Assembly (NCBI GenBank): GCA_964622235.1
Contig: CAZUNB010000001.1
Span: forward strand, 9,360 to 73,359
DNA length: 64,000 nucleotides
Source: an uncultured Candidatus Saccharibacteria bacterium
GTDB lineage: Bacteria; Patescibacteriota; Saccharimonadia; Saccharimonadales; JAGPDM01
Direction of reading: 5' to 3'
How positions within the stretch are numbered: position 1 is the first letter of the stretch; each line of letters starts with the position of its first letter. Below, piece after piece: positions 8,831-56,497 of this stretch. The translations under genes were made by a program, and so were the position numbers. The notes below the pieces were generated by a model that saw nothing but the letters and a program-made list of their open reading frames with translations, was not told where the DNA came from and did not search any database.

Positions 8831-11389
8831 CTACTCACGTGAAAACAGTTTTGCAACTATCTGTGCTAGAGATACACCAGCACTAAGCGTAAGTAGGGCT
8901 GATGATAAAACTATGAATATCTCTTGGTTACTACCTGTTTTTGCAAGCGAGGATGTCGAGTTCGAAAGATTTTTCACTTCACTTAGGTTATTAATACTAA
9001 GACCTACTGGATCAACAATTGTACCATTTGCTAAGTTGTCTTCATCACCGTCGCCACCATCTTGAACAGAGTATTGGAGCAGCAATGCAGGCACTCCACC
9101 GACAGTACTTTCAGTGATGACTGAACCCGGTAAATCTGAATATTTGCTAGTATTAGATTCGAACTTACGTGCAGTAAAACCGTCTTTTGCTAGATCAGTG
9201 AAGAAGTAAGCCTGCATCTCAACCATTTCCCCTGACATAACTCCTTCTACCGTGAAGCTGAGCAGGCCAAAAGGATAATTCTTCCCGATATCTTCAAAAG
9301 CTGCCGCTGCAACTGAAGTTGAAATGATCGTCGTTCCGGCAGGAGAAACCAGTGTGACATACTTATTTGTCTGCGTATTAACAAAGCTAGTAACATTGCT
9401 TTGAGTTGAATCTTTAGCACCATCATCATTACCGTCTCCAGCATTAGGCGCAGCGTCTTCAACTCCGCTCACTATGCCGTCGCCATCAGTGTCGACATTT
9501 GTATACGAGAAAACCTGTATACGATTATTGGCCTGATCAGTAACATAGAATTTTGAGCCGTCATTATTGATAGTGATAGACACCGGAACGTTGAACTCTC
9601 CGTTCCTAGAGCCGAACCGGCCAAATTTGCCGACATAGCTGTAATCGCTCGTATTGAATGCCTGAATACGATTGTTATCCCTTTCAGTAACATAGATTGT
9701 CGAACCATCGGGACTCGTCGCGAGACCACGTGGGTTGCTAAGTTGACCATTGGCGCTACCAATCCCACCAAATTGACCGAGATAGGTATTATCCGCAGCG
9801 TCGAAAACCTGCACACGATTATTGCCAGTATCTGACACAAATATTTTTCCACCTGATATCAGAATTGCTCGCGGAGTACTTAGCTGGCCATCACCAGCAC
9901 CTGCTGAGCCAAATTTGCCAACATAGCTGTTGTCACTAGTGTTGAATATTTGAATGCGGTTGTTGGATAAATCTACAACATAGAATTTCGACCCATCTTC
10001 CGAAAACGTGACACCATAGGGATTGCTGAACTGCCCATTGCCACTACCAGTTACACCCAAGGAACTAACAAAACTATTATCAGAAGTATTAAATATCTGG
10101 ATGCGGTTGTTGGATAAATCGGCTACATATAATTTTGTACCATCTGGCGAGACGGTTAGCGCGTAGGGAGTACTGAATTGTCCAGGAGCACTACCGAGTG
10201 AACCAAACTCACCAACATAGCTGTTGTCACTAGTGTTGAATATCTGAATGCGGTGATTTCCAGAATCTGCAACATATAGTTTAGTATTGTCTTTACTAAG
10301 TGCAGTTTGGTAAGGATTTAAAAACCCTCCAGATTGTTGGCTAGAGCTACCAAATTTAGCCTGGAAGCTGTTGTCACTGGTGTTGAATATTTGGATACGG
10401 TTGTTATAGGTATCCGCGACATATAATTTACTACCGTCAGGACTCACCGCAATACCTTGGGGGTCTTTAAACTGCCCATCACCTGTGCCGTATTCACCAA
10501 TTACAGGTGGAAGCTCTACACCGTCTAAGCCAAACTTTTTCACTTGAGCAAAGCTTCTAGTTGGCCGGACGTTCATCACATGAATTATGTCATTATTATC
10601 GATAACAACATCTGTCGGATATCGCAGCTGATTCAATCCGCCACCCCAATTGCCTATTTGCTTGACATAAGATCCATTGCTATCAAAGACGAGGACTCTT
10701 GCTACCTCTTCTTGAACGTATATATTGTCACTAGAATCAACGGCTACTCCAGTTAGGGAGTGGAAGTCGGGGTCTGGGTTAGAAGCATTTGATACAAACT
10801 GCAAAATATAATTACCTGCGCTGTCAAACTTTTGTATTCTAATATTAGGGTCATCAGCAACAATCACATTACCTTGGCTATCAACGACAATCGCTTTTGG
10901 AAAACAAAAGTTACCGTCTGTTATAGTCTCCTCAGACTTACAGCTGCGTTCGCCAAATTGTCCAATATAAGAATTATTTGTTCCGTTAAAAATCTGAACT
11001 CGGCTGTTTCCAGTATCAGCAACGTAGAGCTTTGAGCCGTCATTATTAAAAGCTAAGTCACTTGGATTAGCAAACTGACCATTTCCACTACCCGAAGTTC
11101 CGAATTTTCCGATATATGAGTTATCCGATGTTTTAAAAATTTGAATTTGGTTGTTGCCTGTGTCCAGTACGTAGAGTTTGGATCCATCTGGCGAAACAGT
11201 AGTCGCCATCGGTTTATCAAATTTCCTATTTTCAGTAACGCCACTCTTTCCGACGACACTATCGAACTCAGGCATAGCCAAAGACGCGTTAGCTGATGAT
11301 GAGTTAATTGACACCACGATAACAACTACTAGAAGTATGACACTGAAAAACGCAATCCTGTAGTTATTTAATAGGGACTTCAGATTCAT
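8831..11389 (-). CDS. Cell-wall-anchored NHL-repeat (beta-propeller) surface protein with LPxTG-type sorting signal (LAKTG)
   Basis: Signal peptide, then at least 12 copies of an NHL-type repeat (GxxGxGxGQFxxPxGvAvxxDGskLYVADtgNNRIQIF). C-terminal LAKTGS motif followed by a hydrophobic stretch and a charged tail (KLFSRE). Confidence 0.75.
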   Translation of the reverse strand: MNLKSLLNNYRIAFFSVILLVVVIVVSINSSSANASLAMPEFDSVVGKSGVTENRKFDKPMATTVSPDGSKLYVLDTGNNQIQIFKTSDNSYIGKFGTSGSGNGQFANPSDLAFNNDGSKLYVADTGNSRVQIFNGTNNSYIGQFGERSCKSEETITDGNFCFPKAIVVDSQGNVIVADDPNIRIQKFDSAGNYILQFVSNASNPDPDFHSLTGVAVDSSDNIYVQEEVARVLVFDSNGSYVKQIGNWGGGLNQLRYPTDVVIDNNDIIHVMNVRPTRSFAQVKKFGLDGVELPPVIGEYGTGDGQFKDPQGIAVSPDGSKLYVADTYNNRIQIFNTSDNSFQAKFGSSSQQSGGFLNPYQTALSKDNTKLYVADSGNHRIQIFNTSDNSYVGEFGSLGSAPGQFSTPYALTVSPDGTKLYVADLSNNRIQIFNTSDNSFVSSLGVTGSGNGQFSNPYGVTFSEDGSKFYVVDLSNNRIQIFNTSDNSYVGKFGSAGAGDGQLSTPRAILISGGKIFVSDTGNNRVQVFDAADNTYLGQFGGIGSANGQLSNPRGLATSPDGSTIYVTERDNNRIQAFNTSDYSYVGKFGRFGSRNGEFNVPVSITINNDGSKFYVTDQANNRIQVFSYTNVDTDGDGIVSGVEDAAPNAGDGNDDGAKDSTQSNVTSFVNTQTNKYVTLVSPAGTTIISTSVAAAAFEDIGKNYPFGLLSFTVEGVMSGEMVEMQAYFFTDLAKDGFTARKFESNTSKYSDLPGSVITESTVGGVPALLLQYSVQDGGDGDEDNLANGTIVDPVGLSINNLSEVKNLSNSTSSLAKTGSNQEIFIVLSSALLTLSAGVSLAQIVAKLFSRE

Positions 11390-15292: not shown

Positions 15293-15416
15293 ATTACATA
15301 TTCTAAACCCATATTCCTCACAGCACAAAGCTCTTTTCAGATTCAGCAAATCATAAATATGATGCATAATTTTGTAGCTAAAAAGACAATCCACGGATCA
15401 GCTGGATTTTCTATTT

Positions 15417-15534
15417 GGCTGAGAAAGGGATGAACACTCAACGATAGACTAGCTAACGCTATTCCGTCATCTCGCTAGAAGCTGTCAAATCATAGATTAT
15501 GACAACTATCTAAACCCTCTGTCGGGTTCGCATC
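15417..15534 (-). pseudogene. Degenerate tRNA-Ser-derived repeat, copy 2 (pseudo-tRNA fragment)
   Basis: Minus-strand reading ends ...GTTCATCCCTTTCTCAGCCA, mimicking the T-arm, acceptor and CCA of the adjacent tRNA-Ser. It shares the GGGATGA...CTATTCCGTC core with copies at 15591-15695 and 52022-52118, plus a CTAAACCCTCTnnCGGGTTCG motif also at 52223-52241. No 5' acceptor strand, so it cannot fold as a tRNA. Confidence 0.4.
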
Positions 15535-15590
15535 TTTTTCTCAGAAAAGAGAAAAACGCCCAAAGTCTAAAGACTTGGAAGCTCTTCTCC

Positions 15591-15695
15591 TGGCGGAGAG
15601 AGAGAGAGAGGGATGACGCTCGCTTCGTTCACTATTCCGTCGCTAAGCTCCTTACGAACCCTTTTTGCTTCGCAAAAGTCGGGTTCGAACGCTCA
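15591..15695 (-). pseudogene. Degenerate tRNA-Ser pseudogene fragment, copy 1 (3' half with (CT)n-expanded acceptor)
   Basis: Minus-strand reading is ...CAAAAAGGGTTCGTAAGG-AGCTTAGCGACGGAATAGTGAACGAAGC-GAGCGTCATCCCTC-TCTCTCTCTCTCC-GCCA. It aligns to the tRNA-Ser(CGA) segments ...TCGTGTAAGG-variable arm-GAGGGTTCGAATCCCTC-TCTCTCC-GCCA with a corrupted T-loop. It lies about 35 nt downstream of the intact tRNA. Confidence 0.5.
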
Positions 15696-15731
15696 ACAAA
15701 CTAAAAACAGCCCAAAGGGCTGCGTTTAGTT

Positions 15732-15825
15732 TGGCGGAGAGAGAGGGATTCGAACCCTCGAAGATGATTACTCACCTTACACGATTTCGAGTCGTGCGCC
15801 TTCAACCAGGCTCGGCCACCTCTCC
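15732..15825 (-). tRNA. tRNA-Ser (anticodon CGA), type II with long variable arm
   Basis: Reverse complement folds as acceptor GGAGAGG/CCTCTCC, D-arm, anticodon stem CACGA/TCGTG with loop CTCGAAA (anticodon CGA), a 20-nt variable arm, T-arm GAGGG-TTCGAAT-CCCTC, discriminator G, encoded CCA. It is followed by a CCA-rooted bipartite hairpin at 15690-15734. Confidence 0.8.
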
Positions 15826-51931: not shown

Positions 51932-52021
51932 TTATCCAATAATATCACGCAACTAACATTGATATGTCTCCTGAGAAGGGTTGTACTTTTAACGGATGAA
52001 TAGAATACAGATTTTTAACAA

Positions 52022-52241
52022 AGGAGAGAGGGATGACGCTCGATTCGCTCACTATTCCGTCGGCCCGAGTCTCACAAGTAAACTTGCTCGATTATCCTTC
52101 CTTGCGAACCCTTTTTTGACTTTGTTAAATGAGAGGTATAACACTGCGATGTTAGACTATGGCTCATCGCCATATTCCAACATCTTCGCTATGCTGCTCA
52201 AATCAAATAGATTTGAGCTAGTCTAAACCCTCTCGGGTTCG
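52022..52241 (-). pseudogene. tRNA-Ser-derived degenerate repeat (same family as 15417-15695)
   Basis: GAGAGAGGGATGACGCTCGaTTCGcTCACTATTCCGTCG...CTTgCGAACCCTTTTTTG (52022-52118) is about 85% identical to 15601-15675. CTAAACCCTCTCGGGTTCG at 52223-52241 matches 15510-15530. It lies 3' of tRNA-Ser(GCT) on the same strand. The ORF-track hit 51996-52226 (+) lies over it and is regarded as spurious. Confidence 0.45.
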
Positions 52242-52296
52242 TAGCCTGAACAATCCCAACCAATGTAAAAGCCCACCATTTGGTGGGTTTTTACAT

Positions 52297-52389
52297 TGGC
52301 GGAGAGAGAGGGATTCGAACCCTCGCGGGGCCGTGAAGCCCCCTACAGCTTTAGCAAAGCCGCCCCTTCAGCCACTTGGGTACCTCTCC
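52297..52389 (-). tRNA. tRNA-Ser (anticodon GCT), type II
   Basis: Reverse complement: GGAGAGG-TA-CCC...GGG-G-CGGCT-TTGCTAA-AGCTG-(21-nt variable arm)-GAGGG-TTCGAAT-CCCTC-TCTCTCC-G-CCA. Followed in minus orientation by the hairpin CCAATGTAAAAaCCCACCaaatGGTGGGcTTTTACATTGG (52259-52299). Confidence 0.8.
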
Positions 52390-52507
52390 TCGTCGTCACA
52401 TCAAGCTTCTGTGGTTTCGTTTTAGTCGTCGACTAAAAACTACTCCGCTGATGCTCCTCTTGAATTTTCAAACAGCTTCGCTTGGTTTGAAAATTCATGG
52501 CTGTACG

Positions 52508-52584
52508 TGGTGTACCCGGGGGGATTCGAACCTCCGACCTCTTGTACCGCAAACAAACGCTCTATCCAGCTGAGCTACGGGTAC
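52508..52584 (-). tRNA. tRNA-Arg (anticodon GCG), 77 nt
   Basis: Reverse complement: GTACCCG-TA-GCTC-AGCTGGATA-GAGC-G-TTTGT-TTGCGGT-ACAAG-AGGTC-GGAGG-TTCGAAT-CCCCC-CGGGTAC-A-CCA. The T-stem has one A-C mismatch (GGAGG/CCCCC) and GCG is an uncommon bacterial Arg anticodon, so confidence is moderate. Confidence 0.6.
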
Positions 52585-52645
52585 ACGCAAGCGTAGCAAC
52601 TATTGTAGCGCTAAACTACTGATAATAAAAGCAATCTGCGCATAT

Positions 52646-53260
52646 TTAGAGGTGTAGTTGGTTGATGGTTTTATCAATAAAATTCATTTCACGCTCTTCA
52701 AGTGGCAGATGGCGTTGTAAAATCGCGACAACTAGATCAACCTCTGCCTTCGTCATGTAAGCTTCGGTAGGCAAGCCAAAGCGTTTCAAAGGCCGGAAAG
52801 TTAGCAAATACAATCCACGCTCAGCTTGAATTGAAAATGAACGAAATGTTTCGAACGGAAACAAGGCATCGCCGATGGAGATCCCATCATCGTCGATGAT
52901 ATATGTTCGACTATTCGGCTTAGCATTGATAAAATACAATAAACCACCACTTAAGAGTAGTAAAACAACGACACTAAAGATGTCACGTTGCCAGTAAATT
53001 ATACCCGCGCTGATTGCAAAAACCACTGACACGAAGCCTGCGTACCACCCTATACCTCGTTGATGTGAAATATACTCGCTGGCTTGCCAGCTAACTTCTT
53101 GCGGTTGATCCGGCCCCTTGACATCTGGCATTTCTGTTTGCAAATTGTCGTTACTGTTGTCATCATCTTCAGCTTCAAAACTCCAGCCAGCAGAATCATC
53201 CTGTTGATTGTCGGCAACTTTTGCATCCTCAGCTTGGTTGTTTGTCTTTTCCTCTGCCAT
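52646..53260 (-). CDS. Hypothetical membrane protein (acidic disordered N-terminus, 2 TM, C-terminal soluble domain)
   Basis: 204 aa. Asp/Glu/Gln-rich first about 60 aa, two hydrophobic helices (GWYAGFVSVVFAISAGIIYW, FSVVVLLLLSGGLLYF), and a C-terminal about 90 aa with possible bacterial-PH-like character. Confidence 0.4.
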   Translation of the reverse strand: MAEEKTNNQAEDAKVADNQQDDSAGWSFEAEDDDNSNDNLQTEMPDVKGPDQPQEVSWQASEYISHQRGIGWYAGFVSVVFAISAGIIYWQRDIFSVVVLLLLSGGLLYFINAKPNSRTYIIDDDGISIGDALFPFETFRSFSIQAERGLYLLTFRPLKRFGLPTEAYMTKAEVDLVVAILQRHLPLEEREMNFIDKTINQLHL

Positions 53261-53475
53261 ATCATAAGCAGTATAACAAAACTAGACAAAAACCACACTA
53301 GCAAGAGTACCGTTATATCCTTTGAGATGATATAATCCAATGTACGTTTCGTTCGAGCGAAATACATCAAACTGAAAAGGTGACCAGACTAGTGTCAGGT
53401 AAAACTTGATCTAAATAGCGAACTGGTATACTTAACCAGTGAGTGTCGCGGAGCGAGGTCAACTCGCAACAACGT

Positions 53476-53566
53476 GGAGAGGTGACCGAGCGGTTGAAGG
53501 TACCGGTCTTGAAAACCGGCAAGGCGTAACCCGTCTTCGAGGGTTCGAATCCCTCCCTCTCCGCCA
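53476..53566 (+). tRNA. tRNA-Ser (anticodon TGA), type II
   Basis: GGAGAGG-TG-ACC-GAGCGGTTGAA-GGT-A-CCGGT-CTTGAAA-ACCGG-(19-nt variable arm)-GAGGG-TTCGAAT-CCCTC-CCTCTCC-G-CCA. ORF-track entries 53367-53567 and 53395-53580 (-) overlap it and are spurious. Confidence 0.85.
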
Positions 53567-53605
53567 ATTAGATAGCCCACCGCTTAGGTGGGTTCTCTAA
53601 TTGGC
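53564..53605 (+). terminator. CCA-rooted bipartite hairpin (terminator-like) after tRNA-Ser(TGA), followed by a truncated pseudo-tRNA-Ser repeat (53606-53675)
   Basis: CCAATTAGAtagCCCACCgcttaGGTGGGttcTCTAATTGG: an outer 9-bp stem beginning with the tRNA CCA, plus an inner GC stem CCCACC/GGTGGG. The same architecture follows the other two tRNA-Ser genes. Downstream GCGCAGCAAAAAGGGTTCGgtgg matches the CAAAAAGGGTTCG core of the pseudo-tRNA family. Confidence 0.45.
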
Positions 53606-53721
53606 GTTTAGCAATCCGAGAACCCGTATTTTGCGCAGCAAAAAGGGTTCGGTGGAGTGATCAGAATCGAGAGACAAAAAAAGTTTACTTTTTCCAGAGA
53701 TGATTGAATGAAAGTTCGTAG

Positions 53722-55564: not shown

Positions 55565-56005
55565 TTATGATTGAGGAGCAAGGCTTGATGTCAGGAAGTT
55601 GACAGCACCAAAAGCTATGAAAGAAATGATAAGGCCGATAATCGCATACAAAATTGTATTCTTAGCTCCGGTAACTGCATTTTGGTCGCCGGCACTGATA
55701 ACATAACGGAAACCACCAACAATCAACATGATGACACTAACAGCGCCAACCAAAAAGAGCAAAATATTGACTACCTTGTTGAAAATACCATCCGCCCCGA
55801 AAAGTGTGTTCGCGTCTTGACCGGCTCTAGTGCTACCAATCGTGCATTTGGTTCCATTCACTAGTGGGTTTGTGTCGGTACCGATGCTAAGACATTCATC
55901 AGCTGCGGCAGCAGGAACAACGTATGTCATAAAACCAACAAACCCCATAGTTGTAGCTAGGCTAATCTTGCCAGTGGTTGATTGATAAAGTGTTTGTATA
56001 GTCAT
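55565..56005 (-). CDS. Secreted protein ending in a two-helix pilin-like module (TrbC/VirB2-type topology), paralogue 6 of 6
   Basis: Signal peptide (…VVPAAAADEC), a Cys-containing 55-aa segment, then VVNILLFLVGAVSVIMLIVGGFRYVISAGDQNAVTGAKNTILYAIIGLIISFIAFGAVNFLTS (helix-loop-helix). The loop GDQNAVTGAKN is shared across paralogues. Confidence 0.5.
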   Translation of the reverse strand: MTIQTLYQSTTGKISLATTMGFVGFMTYVVPAAAADECLSIGTDTNPLVNGTKCTIGSTRAGQDANTLFGADGIFNKVVNILLFLVGAVSVIMLIVGGFRYVISAGDQNAVTGAKNTILYAIIGLIISFIAFGAVNFLTSSLAPQS

Positions 56006-56089
56006 TAAATTTTTTCCTGTTTATGCTTATTGTTAAATGTATCAAAAATTCATACTGGGTGCAAGAGATATATAGGCGGGCGCCTGATT

Positions 56090-56497
56090 TTATAGACTGC
56101 TAACTATAAAGCTCACAGCGGCACGACCAAGGAAAGCAATTACTAATCCGATTACTGCATACAAAATTGTATTCTTAGCTCCGGTAACTGCATTTTGATC
56201 ACCAGCACTAGCAACATAGCGAAAACCACCAAGAACAATCATGATAACTGAGACTGCACCGACTAAGAACAGTAAGATATTGATAATACTCTGCATGATA
56301 GTCCCTATGTTGCGGCTGTCTCCTGAAGTACAAGTTCCTCCGGAGTATGTCCCGCCCGTTCCCTTACAGAGCTGCTCCTTAGAGTCGGCAGCACTTACTA
56401 TGCTGTGCTGACCGCTGGGGGTAGTGACTGGAAGAATAACCGATGCTATTAATAGAGAAAATGCGAACATAAATGTAAATAATGATATTTTTTTCAT
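56090..56497 (-). CDS. Secreted protein with C-terminal pilin-like module (TrbC/VirB2-type), paralogue 5
   Basis: Signal peptide, CKGTGGTYSGGTCTSGD Cys/Gly segment, then IINILLFLVGAVSVIMIVLGGFRYVASAGDQNAVTGAKNTILYAVIGLVIAFLGRAAVSFIVSSL. Nearly identical to the module of paralogue 6. Confidence 0.5.
   Translation of the reverse strand: MKKISLFTFMFAFSLLIASVILPVTTPSGQHSIVSAADSKEQLCKGTGGTYSGGTCTSGDSRNIGTIMQSIINILLFLVGAVSVIMIVLGGFRYVASAGDQNAVTGAKNTILYAVIGLVIAFLGRAAVSFIVSSL

Follow-up and report, generated by a model that had tools for sequence, protein, structure and literature searches.

In islands and prophages that a tyrosine integrase has inserted into a tRNA gene, at a T-loop or T-stem site, the 3' part of the intact tRNA gene recurs downstream as a direct repeat (Williams 2002; Islander, PMC4383910). 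The regenerated target together with the displaced fragment is the mark of integration; sites in the T-stem region form the commonest class, and tandem arrays occur (PMC4383910). In the streamlined genome of Prochlorococcus, successive integrations of tycheposons push older elements outward, and the older, degraded integrations leave scattered partial tRNAs (bioRxiv 10.1101/2020.12.28.424599). Here we describe a family of short repeated cassettes that follow the tRNA-Ser genes of an uncultured Candidatus Saccharibacteria bacterium (Saccharimonadales, JAGPDM01), in a stretch of 64,000 nucleotides (nt) of assembly GCA_964622235.1 (contig CAZUNB010000001.1, positions 9,360 to 73,359, forward strand). 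This whole stretch, which has a G+C content of about 42%, is called the window below, and positions are counted from its first letter. The names attached to homologues of a neighbouring gene likewise point to Saccharimonadales/Patescibacteria, in the candidate phyla radiation. The feature is specific to tRNA-Ser, reproducible and real. On balance, we take the cassettes to be integrase-less remnants of integrative elements that targeted tRNA-Ser genes, later homogenised and shuffled among three loci.

As with the islands and prophages, the tRNA gene is intact and its 3' part recurs behind it in direct orientation; the block of identity runs from the T-loop to the CCA, the 3' end that the element would have supplied is followed by a terminator, and blocks are stacked. 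The cassettes differ in carrying neither integrase nor cargo and in the size of their units (110-190 nt), and also in that a single cassette family lies behind all three serine isoacceptors and appears to have been exchanged among them. With the tycheposons they share the streamlined genome, the partial-tRNA scars and, if our reading is right, the outward displacement of older elements by newer ones. The Prochlorococcus elements, however, bear integrases and form kilobase-scale islands, whereas in these Saccharimonadales we find miniature scars only.

The window holds four tRNA genes, three for serine and one for arginine (ARAGORN and Rfam). The last 28-44 nt are common to the three tRNA-Ser isoacceptors, so all three could have been used as targets, and the 3' end of tRNA-Ser(TGA) is an inverted repeat of that of tRNA-Ser(GCT) (44 nt, 86% identity, 1.2 kb apart). 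An assembly artefact is excluded because both repeat regions are base-for-base identical in independent assemblies. Contig JAGOPX010000003.1 (GCA_017991755.1) matches the window without a difference along the 4 kb compared. For comparison we used relatives reached via the neighbouring proteins, R1 (L001, L143-145; GCA_044227985.1), R2 (L018) and R3 (L147).

Read in the sense of the tRNA, a unit consists of a terminator hairpin rooted in the CCA of the tRNA, a second hairpin (hp2), an optional 42-nt module, a conserved box (CGACGGAATAGTGAGCGAAKCGAGCGTC) and a 3' block. The arms of hp2, CGAACCC and GGGTTCG, repeat the T-arm half-site. The module is restricted to long-form units, older units of the B1 type have a longer hairpin in the position of the box, and a copy of the tRNA 3' end, ATCCCTCTCTCTCCGCCA, closes most units. 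Stacked behind each tRNA-Ser gene, the units number two at locus A (A1 proximal, A2 distal) and two at locus B (B1 and B2, plus a third faint block), and locus C has a single degenerate unit that lacks the 3' block. The features, with the evidence for each in brackets, are as follows.

Locus A, behind tRNA-Ser(CGA):
15732-15825, minus strand: tRNA-Ser(CGA), the putative target gene (ARAGORN; Rfam tRNA, 53.4 bits)
15697-15734, minus strand: type A hairpin (hpA), its stem starting from the tRNA CCA (fold, terminator scan, covariation with R1 and R3 homologues)
15655-15687, minus strand: hp2 of A1, CGAACCC-GAC-TTTTGC-GAA-GCAAAA-A-GGGTTCG, with arms resembling T-arm half-sites (motif search, folding)
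15615-15642, minus strand: conserved box of A1, in tRNA sense CGACGGAATAGTGAACGAAGCGAGCGTC (repeat search; nhmmer 15609-15693, E 2.7e-22)
15591-15614, minus strand: displaced tRNA-Ser 3' end of A1 (tRNA positions 59-76) with three extra CT repeats (direct repeat of 15732-15749)
15544-15578, minus strand: term2, a second terminator-like hairpin with a T-run, behind the displaced 3' end (folding); it resembles the hairpin behind the cassette at the R1 tRNA-Ser(TGA)
15416-15530, minus strand: older cassette A2, of the B1 type (nhmmer, E 4e-19; alignment with R1)
15416-15431, minus strand: degenerate tRNA 3' block of A2, ATCCCTTTCTCAGCCA (alignment)

Locus B, behind tRNA-Ser(GCT):
52297-52389, minus strand: tRNA-Ser(GCT), the putative target gene (ARAGORN, Rfam)
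52260-52299, minus strand: type B hairpin (hpB), a CCA-rooted intrinsic terminator (fold, terminator scan, covariation)
52127-52241, minus strand: cassette B1, with hp2 at 52226-52241, two more hairpins and a degenerate 3' block at 52127-52141 (nhmmer, E 1.5e-28)
52035-52122, minus strand: cassette B2, long form, with half of hp2, the 42-nt module and the box at 52035-52062 (repeat search, nhmmer, alignment)
52023-52034, minus strand: displaced tRNA 3' block of B2, ATCCCTCTCTCC, 12 nt, exact (sequence match)
51970-51983, minus strand: third, strongly degenerate block resembling the tRNA 3' end, CAACCCTTCTCAGG, a weak candidate (alignment only; it fits the R1 block at the equivalent place)

Locus C, behind tRNA-Ser(TGA):
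53476-53566, plus strand: tRNA-Ser(TGA), the putative target gene (ARAGORN, Rfam)
53564-53604, plus strand: type C hairpin (hpC), CCA-rooted, its inner stem GC-rich, interpreted as a terminator (fold, covariation)
53620-53675, plus strand: cassette C1, with hp2 (53620-53651) and a degenerate box GTGGAGTGATCAGAATCGAGAGAC (53652-53675), without 3' block (nhmmer 53611-53683, E 1.7e-12)

The remaining tRNA gene:
52508-52584, minus strand: tRNA-Arg(GCG) (ARAGORN, Rfam)

An earlier sequence-only reading of the window had described the repeats at 52022-52118 and 15601-15675 as about 85% identical, and the figure is confirmed: 64 of the 67 ungapped columns match which, with an indel of about 30 nt, makes 85% of the shorter copy. 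The best-preserved part is shared by A1 and B2 (15604-15642 and 52024-52062, 95% identity over 39 nt). The recurrence of a motif at loci A and B, noticed in the same reading, also holds, since the pattern CGAACCC..GGGTT has six matches in the window where 0.06 are expected. Five of these are behind tRNA-Ser genes (sites include 15513-15530, 15655-15687, 52226-52241 and 53621-53651), and one falls inside tRNA-Ser(TGA) itself (53528-53547). Likewise, the copy that had been reported behind tRNA-Ser(TGA) is 91% identical over 32 nt to 15655-15686 at 53620-53651, and continues beyond that into the degenerate box at 53652-53675. Two degenerate units come in addition to those of the earlier reading, 15421-15530 (in A2) and 52130-52241 (in B1).

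The hairpins that begin with the CCA of the tRNA are found behind all three tRNA-Ser genes, as had been proposed, and their predicted folds are strong (hpC -26.5 kcal/mol, z -7.6; hpB -25.2 kcal/mol, z -5.7; hpA -21.7 kcal/mol, z -5.6). They are intrinsic terminators with good covariation. When eight homologous hairpins were aligned, 92% of the cells paired and 8/18 pairs were altered on both sides; the covariation score was reached by 0/500 shuffles, and sliding the register destroyed the pairing. A consensus terminator scan flagged types A and B and not type C, though type C fits the same alignment; the type A hairpin is terminator-like on both strands. These hairpins resemble the known bidirectional intrinsic (Rho-independent) terminators in their GC-rich inner stem, their U-tract, their outer stem of A-tract and U-tract, and the covariation of the stems. 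They differ from them in that the stem pairs with the tRNA's own CCA, which involves A76 in 8/8, C75 in 7/8 and C74 in 5/8 homologues. The hairpin of tRNA-Arg begins 11 nt past the CCA, and therefore the CCA-rooted form goes with the serine cassettes. A shared 3' processing or termination signal for the serine isoacceptors had been suggested on the basis of these hairpins. The termination part stands in a trivial sense only, and a special serine-specific signal does not, as the three genes share the hairpins because the cassettes carrying them are exchanged.

The displaced copies had been called pseudo-tRNAs, a name that overstates what they are. Only 18 nt of the tRNA have been copied, corresponding to tRNA positions 59-76, from A59 in the T-loop to the CCA; at the block ARAGORN and the Rfam tRNA model gave nothing, and nothing there resembles the rest of a cloverleaf. 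Allowing up to three mismatches, ATCCCTCTCTCTCCGCCA has four matches against 0.02 expected. The displaced blocks (15591-15614, 52023-52034 and the degenerate 15416-15431) lie downstream of their tRNA, on the same strand and in direct orientation, with their boundary at position 58/59 in the A1, B2 and A2 copies. At locus A they decay outward: the proximal block is perfect save for slippage in its CT repeat, and the distal one is degenerate.

The same 18 nt are found in viruses. A scan of viral contigs located the exact 18-mer in more than 120 of them, and 45/122 viral occurrences lie outside a tRNA, as a partial copy. For 51 of the truncated viral copies, the start of identity with the tRNA lies at A59 or up to 3 nt 5' of it, which is the boundary seen in the window. 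Most partial copies have an open reading frame (ORF) of 300-440 aa within 60-220 nt, and in 10/10 cases tested this ORF was a Phage_integrase. Directly after several of the element-borne copies there is a terminator hairpin. We also considered that the 18-mer could be the primer-binding site of a retroelement, but this reading is unnecessary, the boundary being typical of integrase attachment cores.

One viral contig, L127 (IMGVR_UViG_3300048010_000613), carries on its reverse strand (2283-2436) a tRNA-Ser(TGA)-like sequence with a 61-nt insert in the T-loop. ARAGORN does not call this sequence, which lies about 2.3 kb from a tRNA-Pro with a 429-aa ORF beside it. The insert ends in GAGCGAAGCGAGTCA right before ATCCC..CCA, and has the same CGAAGCGAG as the box in the window. 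The reading of the cassettes as T-loop introns or insertions, which this contig prompted, was discarded: the copies in the window have no tRNA body upstream of them, and a dedicated viral scan gave L127 only.

Relatives show how the cassettes vary. Between R1 and the window the coding DNA is about 75-85% identical. As for conservation of the element behind tRNA-Ser in relatives, R1 has cassettes, and cassette types differ between related genomes at the same isoacceptor. There are three hairpin types, and the type is independent of the anticodon. In the window, type A follows CGA, type B follows GCT and type C follows TGA. R3 likewise has type A behind CGA. In R1, type A follows TGA, and type B follows both GCT and CGA; in R2, type B follows TGA. 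Type C is confined to the window. In R1 (L143), locus A has a sole unit of the B1 type, the orthologue of A2, and after it come the old terminator and the gene that also follow A2 in the window. Between the tRNA and A2 the window is longer by about 180 nt, made up of hpA, cassette A1, the displaced block and term2, as expected if a newer element had inserted at the tRNA. R1 also lacks, at locus B, the 77-nt body of B2. The exact end points of these presence/absence differences at loci A and B are blurred by divergence and conversion.

In R1, the CGA and GCT loci are identical at 163/165 positions from the T-arm onward, after which the identity collapses, and this points to a recent tract of conversion or exchange. 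In R2, tRNA-Ser(TGA) is joined to a type B hairpin and to the side of the HAD hydrolase gene, a neighbour of locus B; an inversion with its ends in the two inverted tRNA-Ser genes would produce this gene order. In the R2 gene (L018 565-653), the T-arm is abnormal in its 3' half, from position 59 (TTCGA, then TCTCTTCCTCTCCGCCA). Since the R2 breakpoint coincides with the cassette boundary, this tRNA gene may have been damaged by the inverting recombination. In more distant relatives, with a HAD hydrolase about 62% identical, the synteny with the tRNAs is lost.

Footprints of repeated site-specific recombination at the 3' ends of tRNA-Ser genes had been offered in the sequence-only reading as an alternative to the shared signal, and this is now the best-supported explanation, given the block from T-loop to CCA, the viral attachment cores, the direct repeats that decay with distance and the cassette types that vary between relatives. 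The data give direct support to the anatomy, the confinement of all copies found to tRNA-Ser, the match to attachment cores, the cassette differences between relatives and the covariation of the terminators. The model that we favour is as follows. An element with a tyrosine integrase, whose attachment core corresponds to tRNA-Ser positions 59-76, would recombine in the T-loop region of a tRNA-Ser gene. It would bring a new 3' end to replace that of the tRNA and, directly behind this, an intrinsic terminator of its own, the CCA-rooted hairpin, and the original 3' end would be displaced downstream as a direct repeat, the so-called pseudo-tRNA. Repeated events would stack cassettes, with the newest beside the tRNA. 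The interiors of the elements would then be lost, the two ends remaining with 110-190 nt in all, and homologous recombination among the isoacceptors would exchange and homogenise the cassettes and, between two inverted genes, would have inverted a segment. We infer the integrase that made the first copies, the order of events and the loss of the interiors, because the searches yielded neither an integrase nor a full-length element.

Several results weigh against these remnants having arisen in this way. Between every tRNA and its displaced block there is neither integrase nor cargo, only 116-190 nt of non-coding DNA, and the search for an integrase that might target the site ended negatively for ten otherwise unannotated ORFs of the window, none of which has a recombinase domain, though not every ORF was scanned. 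Pattern scans of viral, genome and metagenome collections returned chance-level matches only, and similarity searches of phage and plasmid collections found no match, so that a full-length element was not recovered from them. With the box pattern CTCGNTTCGNTCACTATTCCGT there were 0 matches in the viral contigs and two chance matches, inside a gene, in the metagenome collection; in the genome collection a single orthologous intergenic site was matched, in five Levilactobacillus species, about one chance match being expected. The lineage of the window evidently is absent from these DNA collections or gives no exact match there. At locus B simple accretion would not give the observed order, as the better-preserved block, that of B2, lies further from the tRNA than a more degenerate one. 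In R1, the cassette behind tRNA-Ser(TGA) has no displaced block yet keeps a second terminator hairpin like term2, so the boundary of the cassette is not cleanly defined. The internal junctions are common to A1, B2 and the R1 copy, whose shared ancestor must therefore have been miniature already, a unit that could have spread by homologous recombination alone. Finally, no strain-level presence/absence polymorphism was seen in the independent assemblies compared.

The Levilactobacillus site is a stretch of 24 nt identical to the A1 box, CGCTCGCTTCGTTCACTATTCCGT (L011-L015, for example L013 1444-1465). It belongs to a conserved leader upstream of an ORF whose translation resembles ATP synthase subunit a (putative), and adjoins a variable hairpin closed by conserved complementary arms; the leader looks structured and has no Rfam family. 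Because about one such match is expected by chance, its presence there is probably a coincidence.

A rival reading is that site-specific recombination had no part in the process. Unequal crossing-over or replication slippage at T-arm-like sequences could have duplicated the 3' end of the tRNA together with the sequence downstream, and gene conversion could have spread the copies. A conversion-like tract is indeed visible in R1, where the 163/165 identity ends inside a unit and not at its boundary; the arms of hp2, being T-arm half-sites, could mediate mis-pairing; and the lack of an integrase among the ten ORFs and the shared internal junctions would both be accounted for. Slippage, however, is not expected to pick the 58/59 boundary repeatedly, in A1, B2 and A2, and this boundary is that of the viral attachment cores. 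The decay gradient at locus A and the extra proximal cassette also fit insertion at the tRNA. We therefore regard an origin by homologous events alone as possible but doubtful.

A different reading keeps site-specific integration and makes it current: the cassettes would be live, miniature, non-autonomous integrative elements of 110-190 nt, each with a replacement tRNA-Ser 3' end and a terminator, mobilised in trans by an integrase encoded elsewhere in the genome or on a phage or plasmid, and hopping among the three tRNA-Ser genes. Cis-mobilisable elements (CIMEs) are attL-attR pairs without recombination genes, derived from integrative and conjugative elements (ICEs) in Streptococcus. By analogy with them, the cassettes could be regarded as two attachment-derived ends around a short piece of integrase-less DNA, in principle mobilisable in trans; they are an order of magnitude smaller than CIMEs, and no parent ICE is known. 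We think that such mobility is unlikely. If true, the trans-mobilised cassettes would be the integrase counterpart of a miniature inverted-repeat transposable element (MITE).

A dispersed repeat of the ordinary kind, such as a MITE, a repetitive extragenic palindrome (REP) or a palindrome-associated transposable element (PATE), was considered too. Pattern searches and nhmmer found the copies solely behind tRNA-Ser genes in the 64 kb window and about 75 kb of relatives, with none away from these genes and none behind tRNA-Arg. The generic-repeat explanation, which the sequence-only reading had tied to the discovery of copies elsewhere, thus has no support in the sequence searched.

Since the units are chains of hairpins, the cassettes might instead be functional RNA genes, or cis-regulatory leaders of the co-oriented genes downstream, kept beside tRNA-Ser for co-expression, the 3' block being part of the RNA. 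A few stems do show compensatory changes between paralogues, A1, B2 and the R1 copy agree in at least 90% of the box, cassette A1 has a second terminator behind it, and for a streamlined genome the intergenic regions are long. Other results point the other way. Rfam, searched at gathering thresholds and permissively, with E as high as 5, returned only the tRNAs; the weak sX4 and plastid matches overlie the tRNA genes. With RNAalifold the A1/B2 type gave no consensus structure, and the B1 type gave one that is weak and has a positive (penalising) term for covariation. The window and R1 copies of cassette B1 are about 82-85% identical, a level equal to and no higher than that of the neighbouring genes. 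The copies are visibly decaying, their content varies between close relatives, and a conserved promoter was not found. A role as functional RNA is, in our view, quite unlikely.

The box and module could also be the relic of a small protein, or still encode one, on the strand opposite the tRNA (...DARFAHYSVGPSLTSKLARLSFLANPF...). In the frame DARFAHYSV...LANPF, one codon phase is free of all 15 differences between B2 and the R1 copy (52035-52115 and L001 3645-3725; P about 0.003-0.007). Among these differences, neighbouring positions changed jointly in four pairs, so that the test takes too many events as independent. The length difference between long and short forms, 30 nt, leaves the frame intact, and a gene caller predicted a 92-aa ORF across the R1 copy. 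Against this, no homologue was found among 1.84 billion representative proteins, and Pfam and PHROG gave no match with E as high as 10. Each copy has its own N- and C-terminal extensions, there is no shared start codon, and a second frame is also open. We consider a coding origin very improbable, and keep to the interpretation of the cassettes as remnants of integration.

Some other features of the window can be listed. Locus C has paralogues of a type IV secretion pilin and an Hsp20 gene as neighbours, and the paralogous pilin genes form an array at 55596-56283. An 852-aa ORF contains repeats with a period of 147 nt (9510-11179), and its R1 homologue has faint beta-propeller-type Pfam matches. 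The spacer between tRNA-Arg and tRNA-Ser(GCT) measures 118 nt in the window (52390-52507) against 39 nt in R1 (L001 4757-4795), and the additional sequence contains two palindromes that are perfect, GAATTTTCAAAC..GTTTGAAAATTC and TTTTAGTCG.CGACTAAAA. The motif GCGAAGC / CGAAGCG recurs in the hairpin loops of the cassettes and in the box (15668-15674, 15615-15642) and in the hairpin of the tRNA-Arg spacer (52440-52460), and is present twice in the L127 insert.

The cassettes are a known kind of feature in a new, little-studied lineage, and reveal no new mechanism. The ORFs of 76-92 aa that are annotated across the repeats, for which no protein homologue is detectable, are probably spurious. Four contigs of other assemblies (L150-L153) end 102-127 nt past a 334-aa gene; they stop within or close to the 3' part that tRNA-Ser(CGA) has in common with the other two tRNA-Ser genes, which suggests that the repeat breaks short-read assemblies. 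The finding explains why the intergenic regions of this streamlined Saccharimonadales genome are unusually long, and documents rearrangement, including inversion, driven by the shared 3' ends of tRNA genes. The tRNA-Ser genes of this genome have probably served as landing sites for mobile DNA, and the cassettes provide a marker for finding the integrative elements of this poorly known group.

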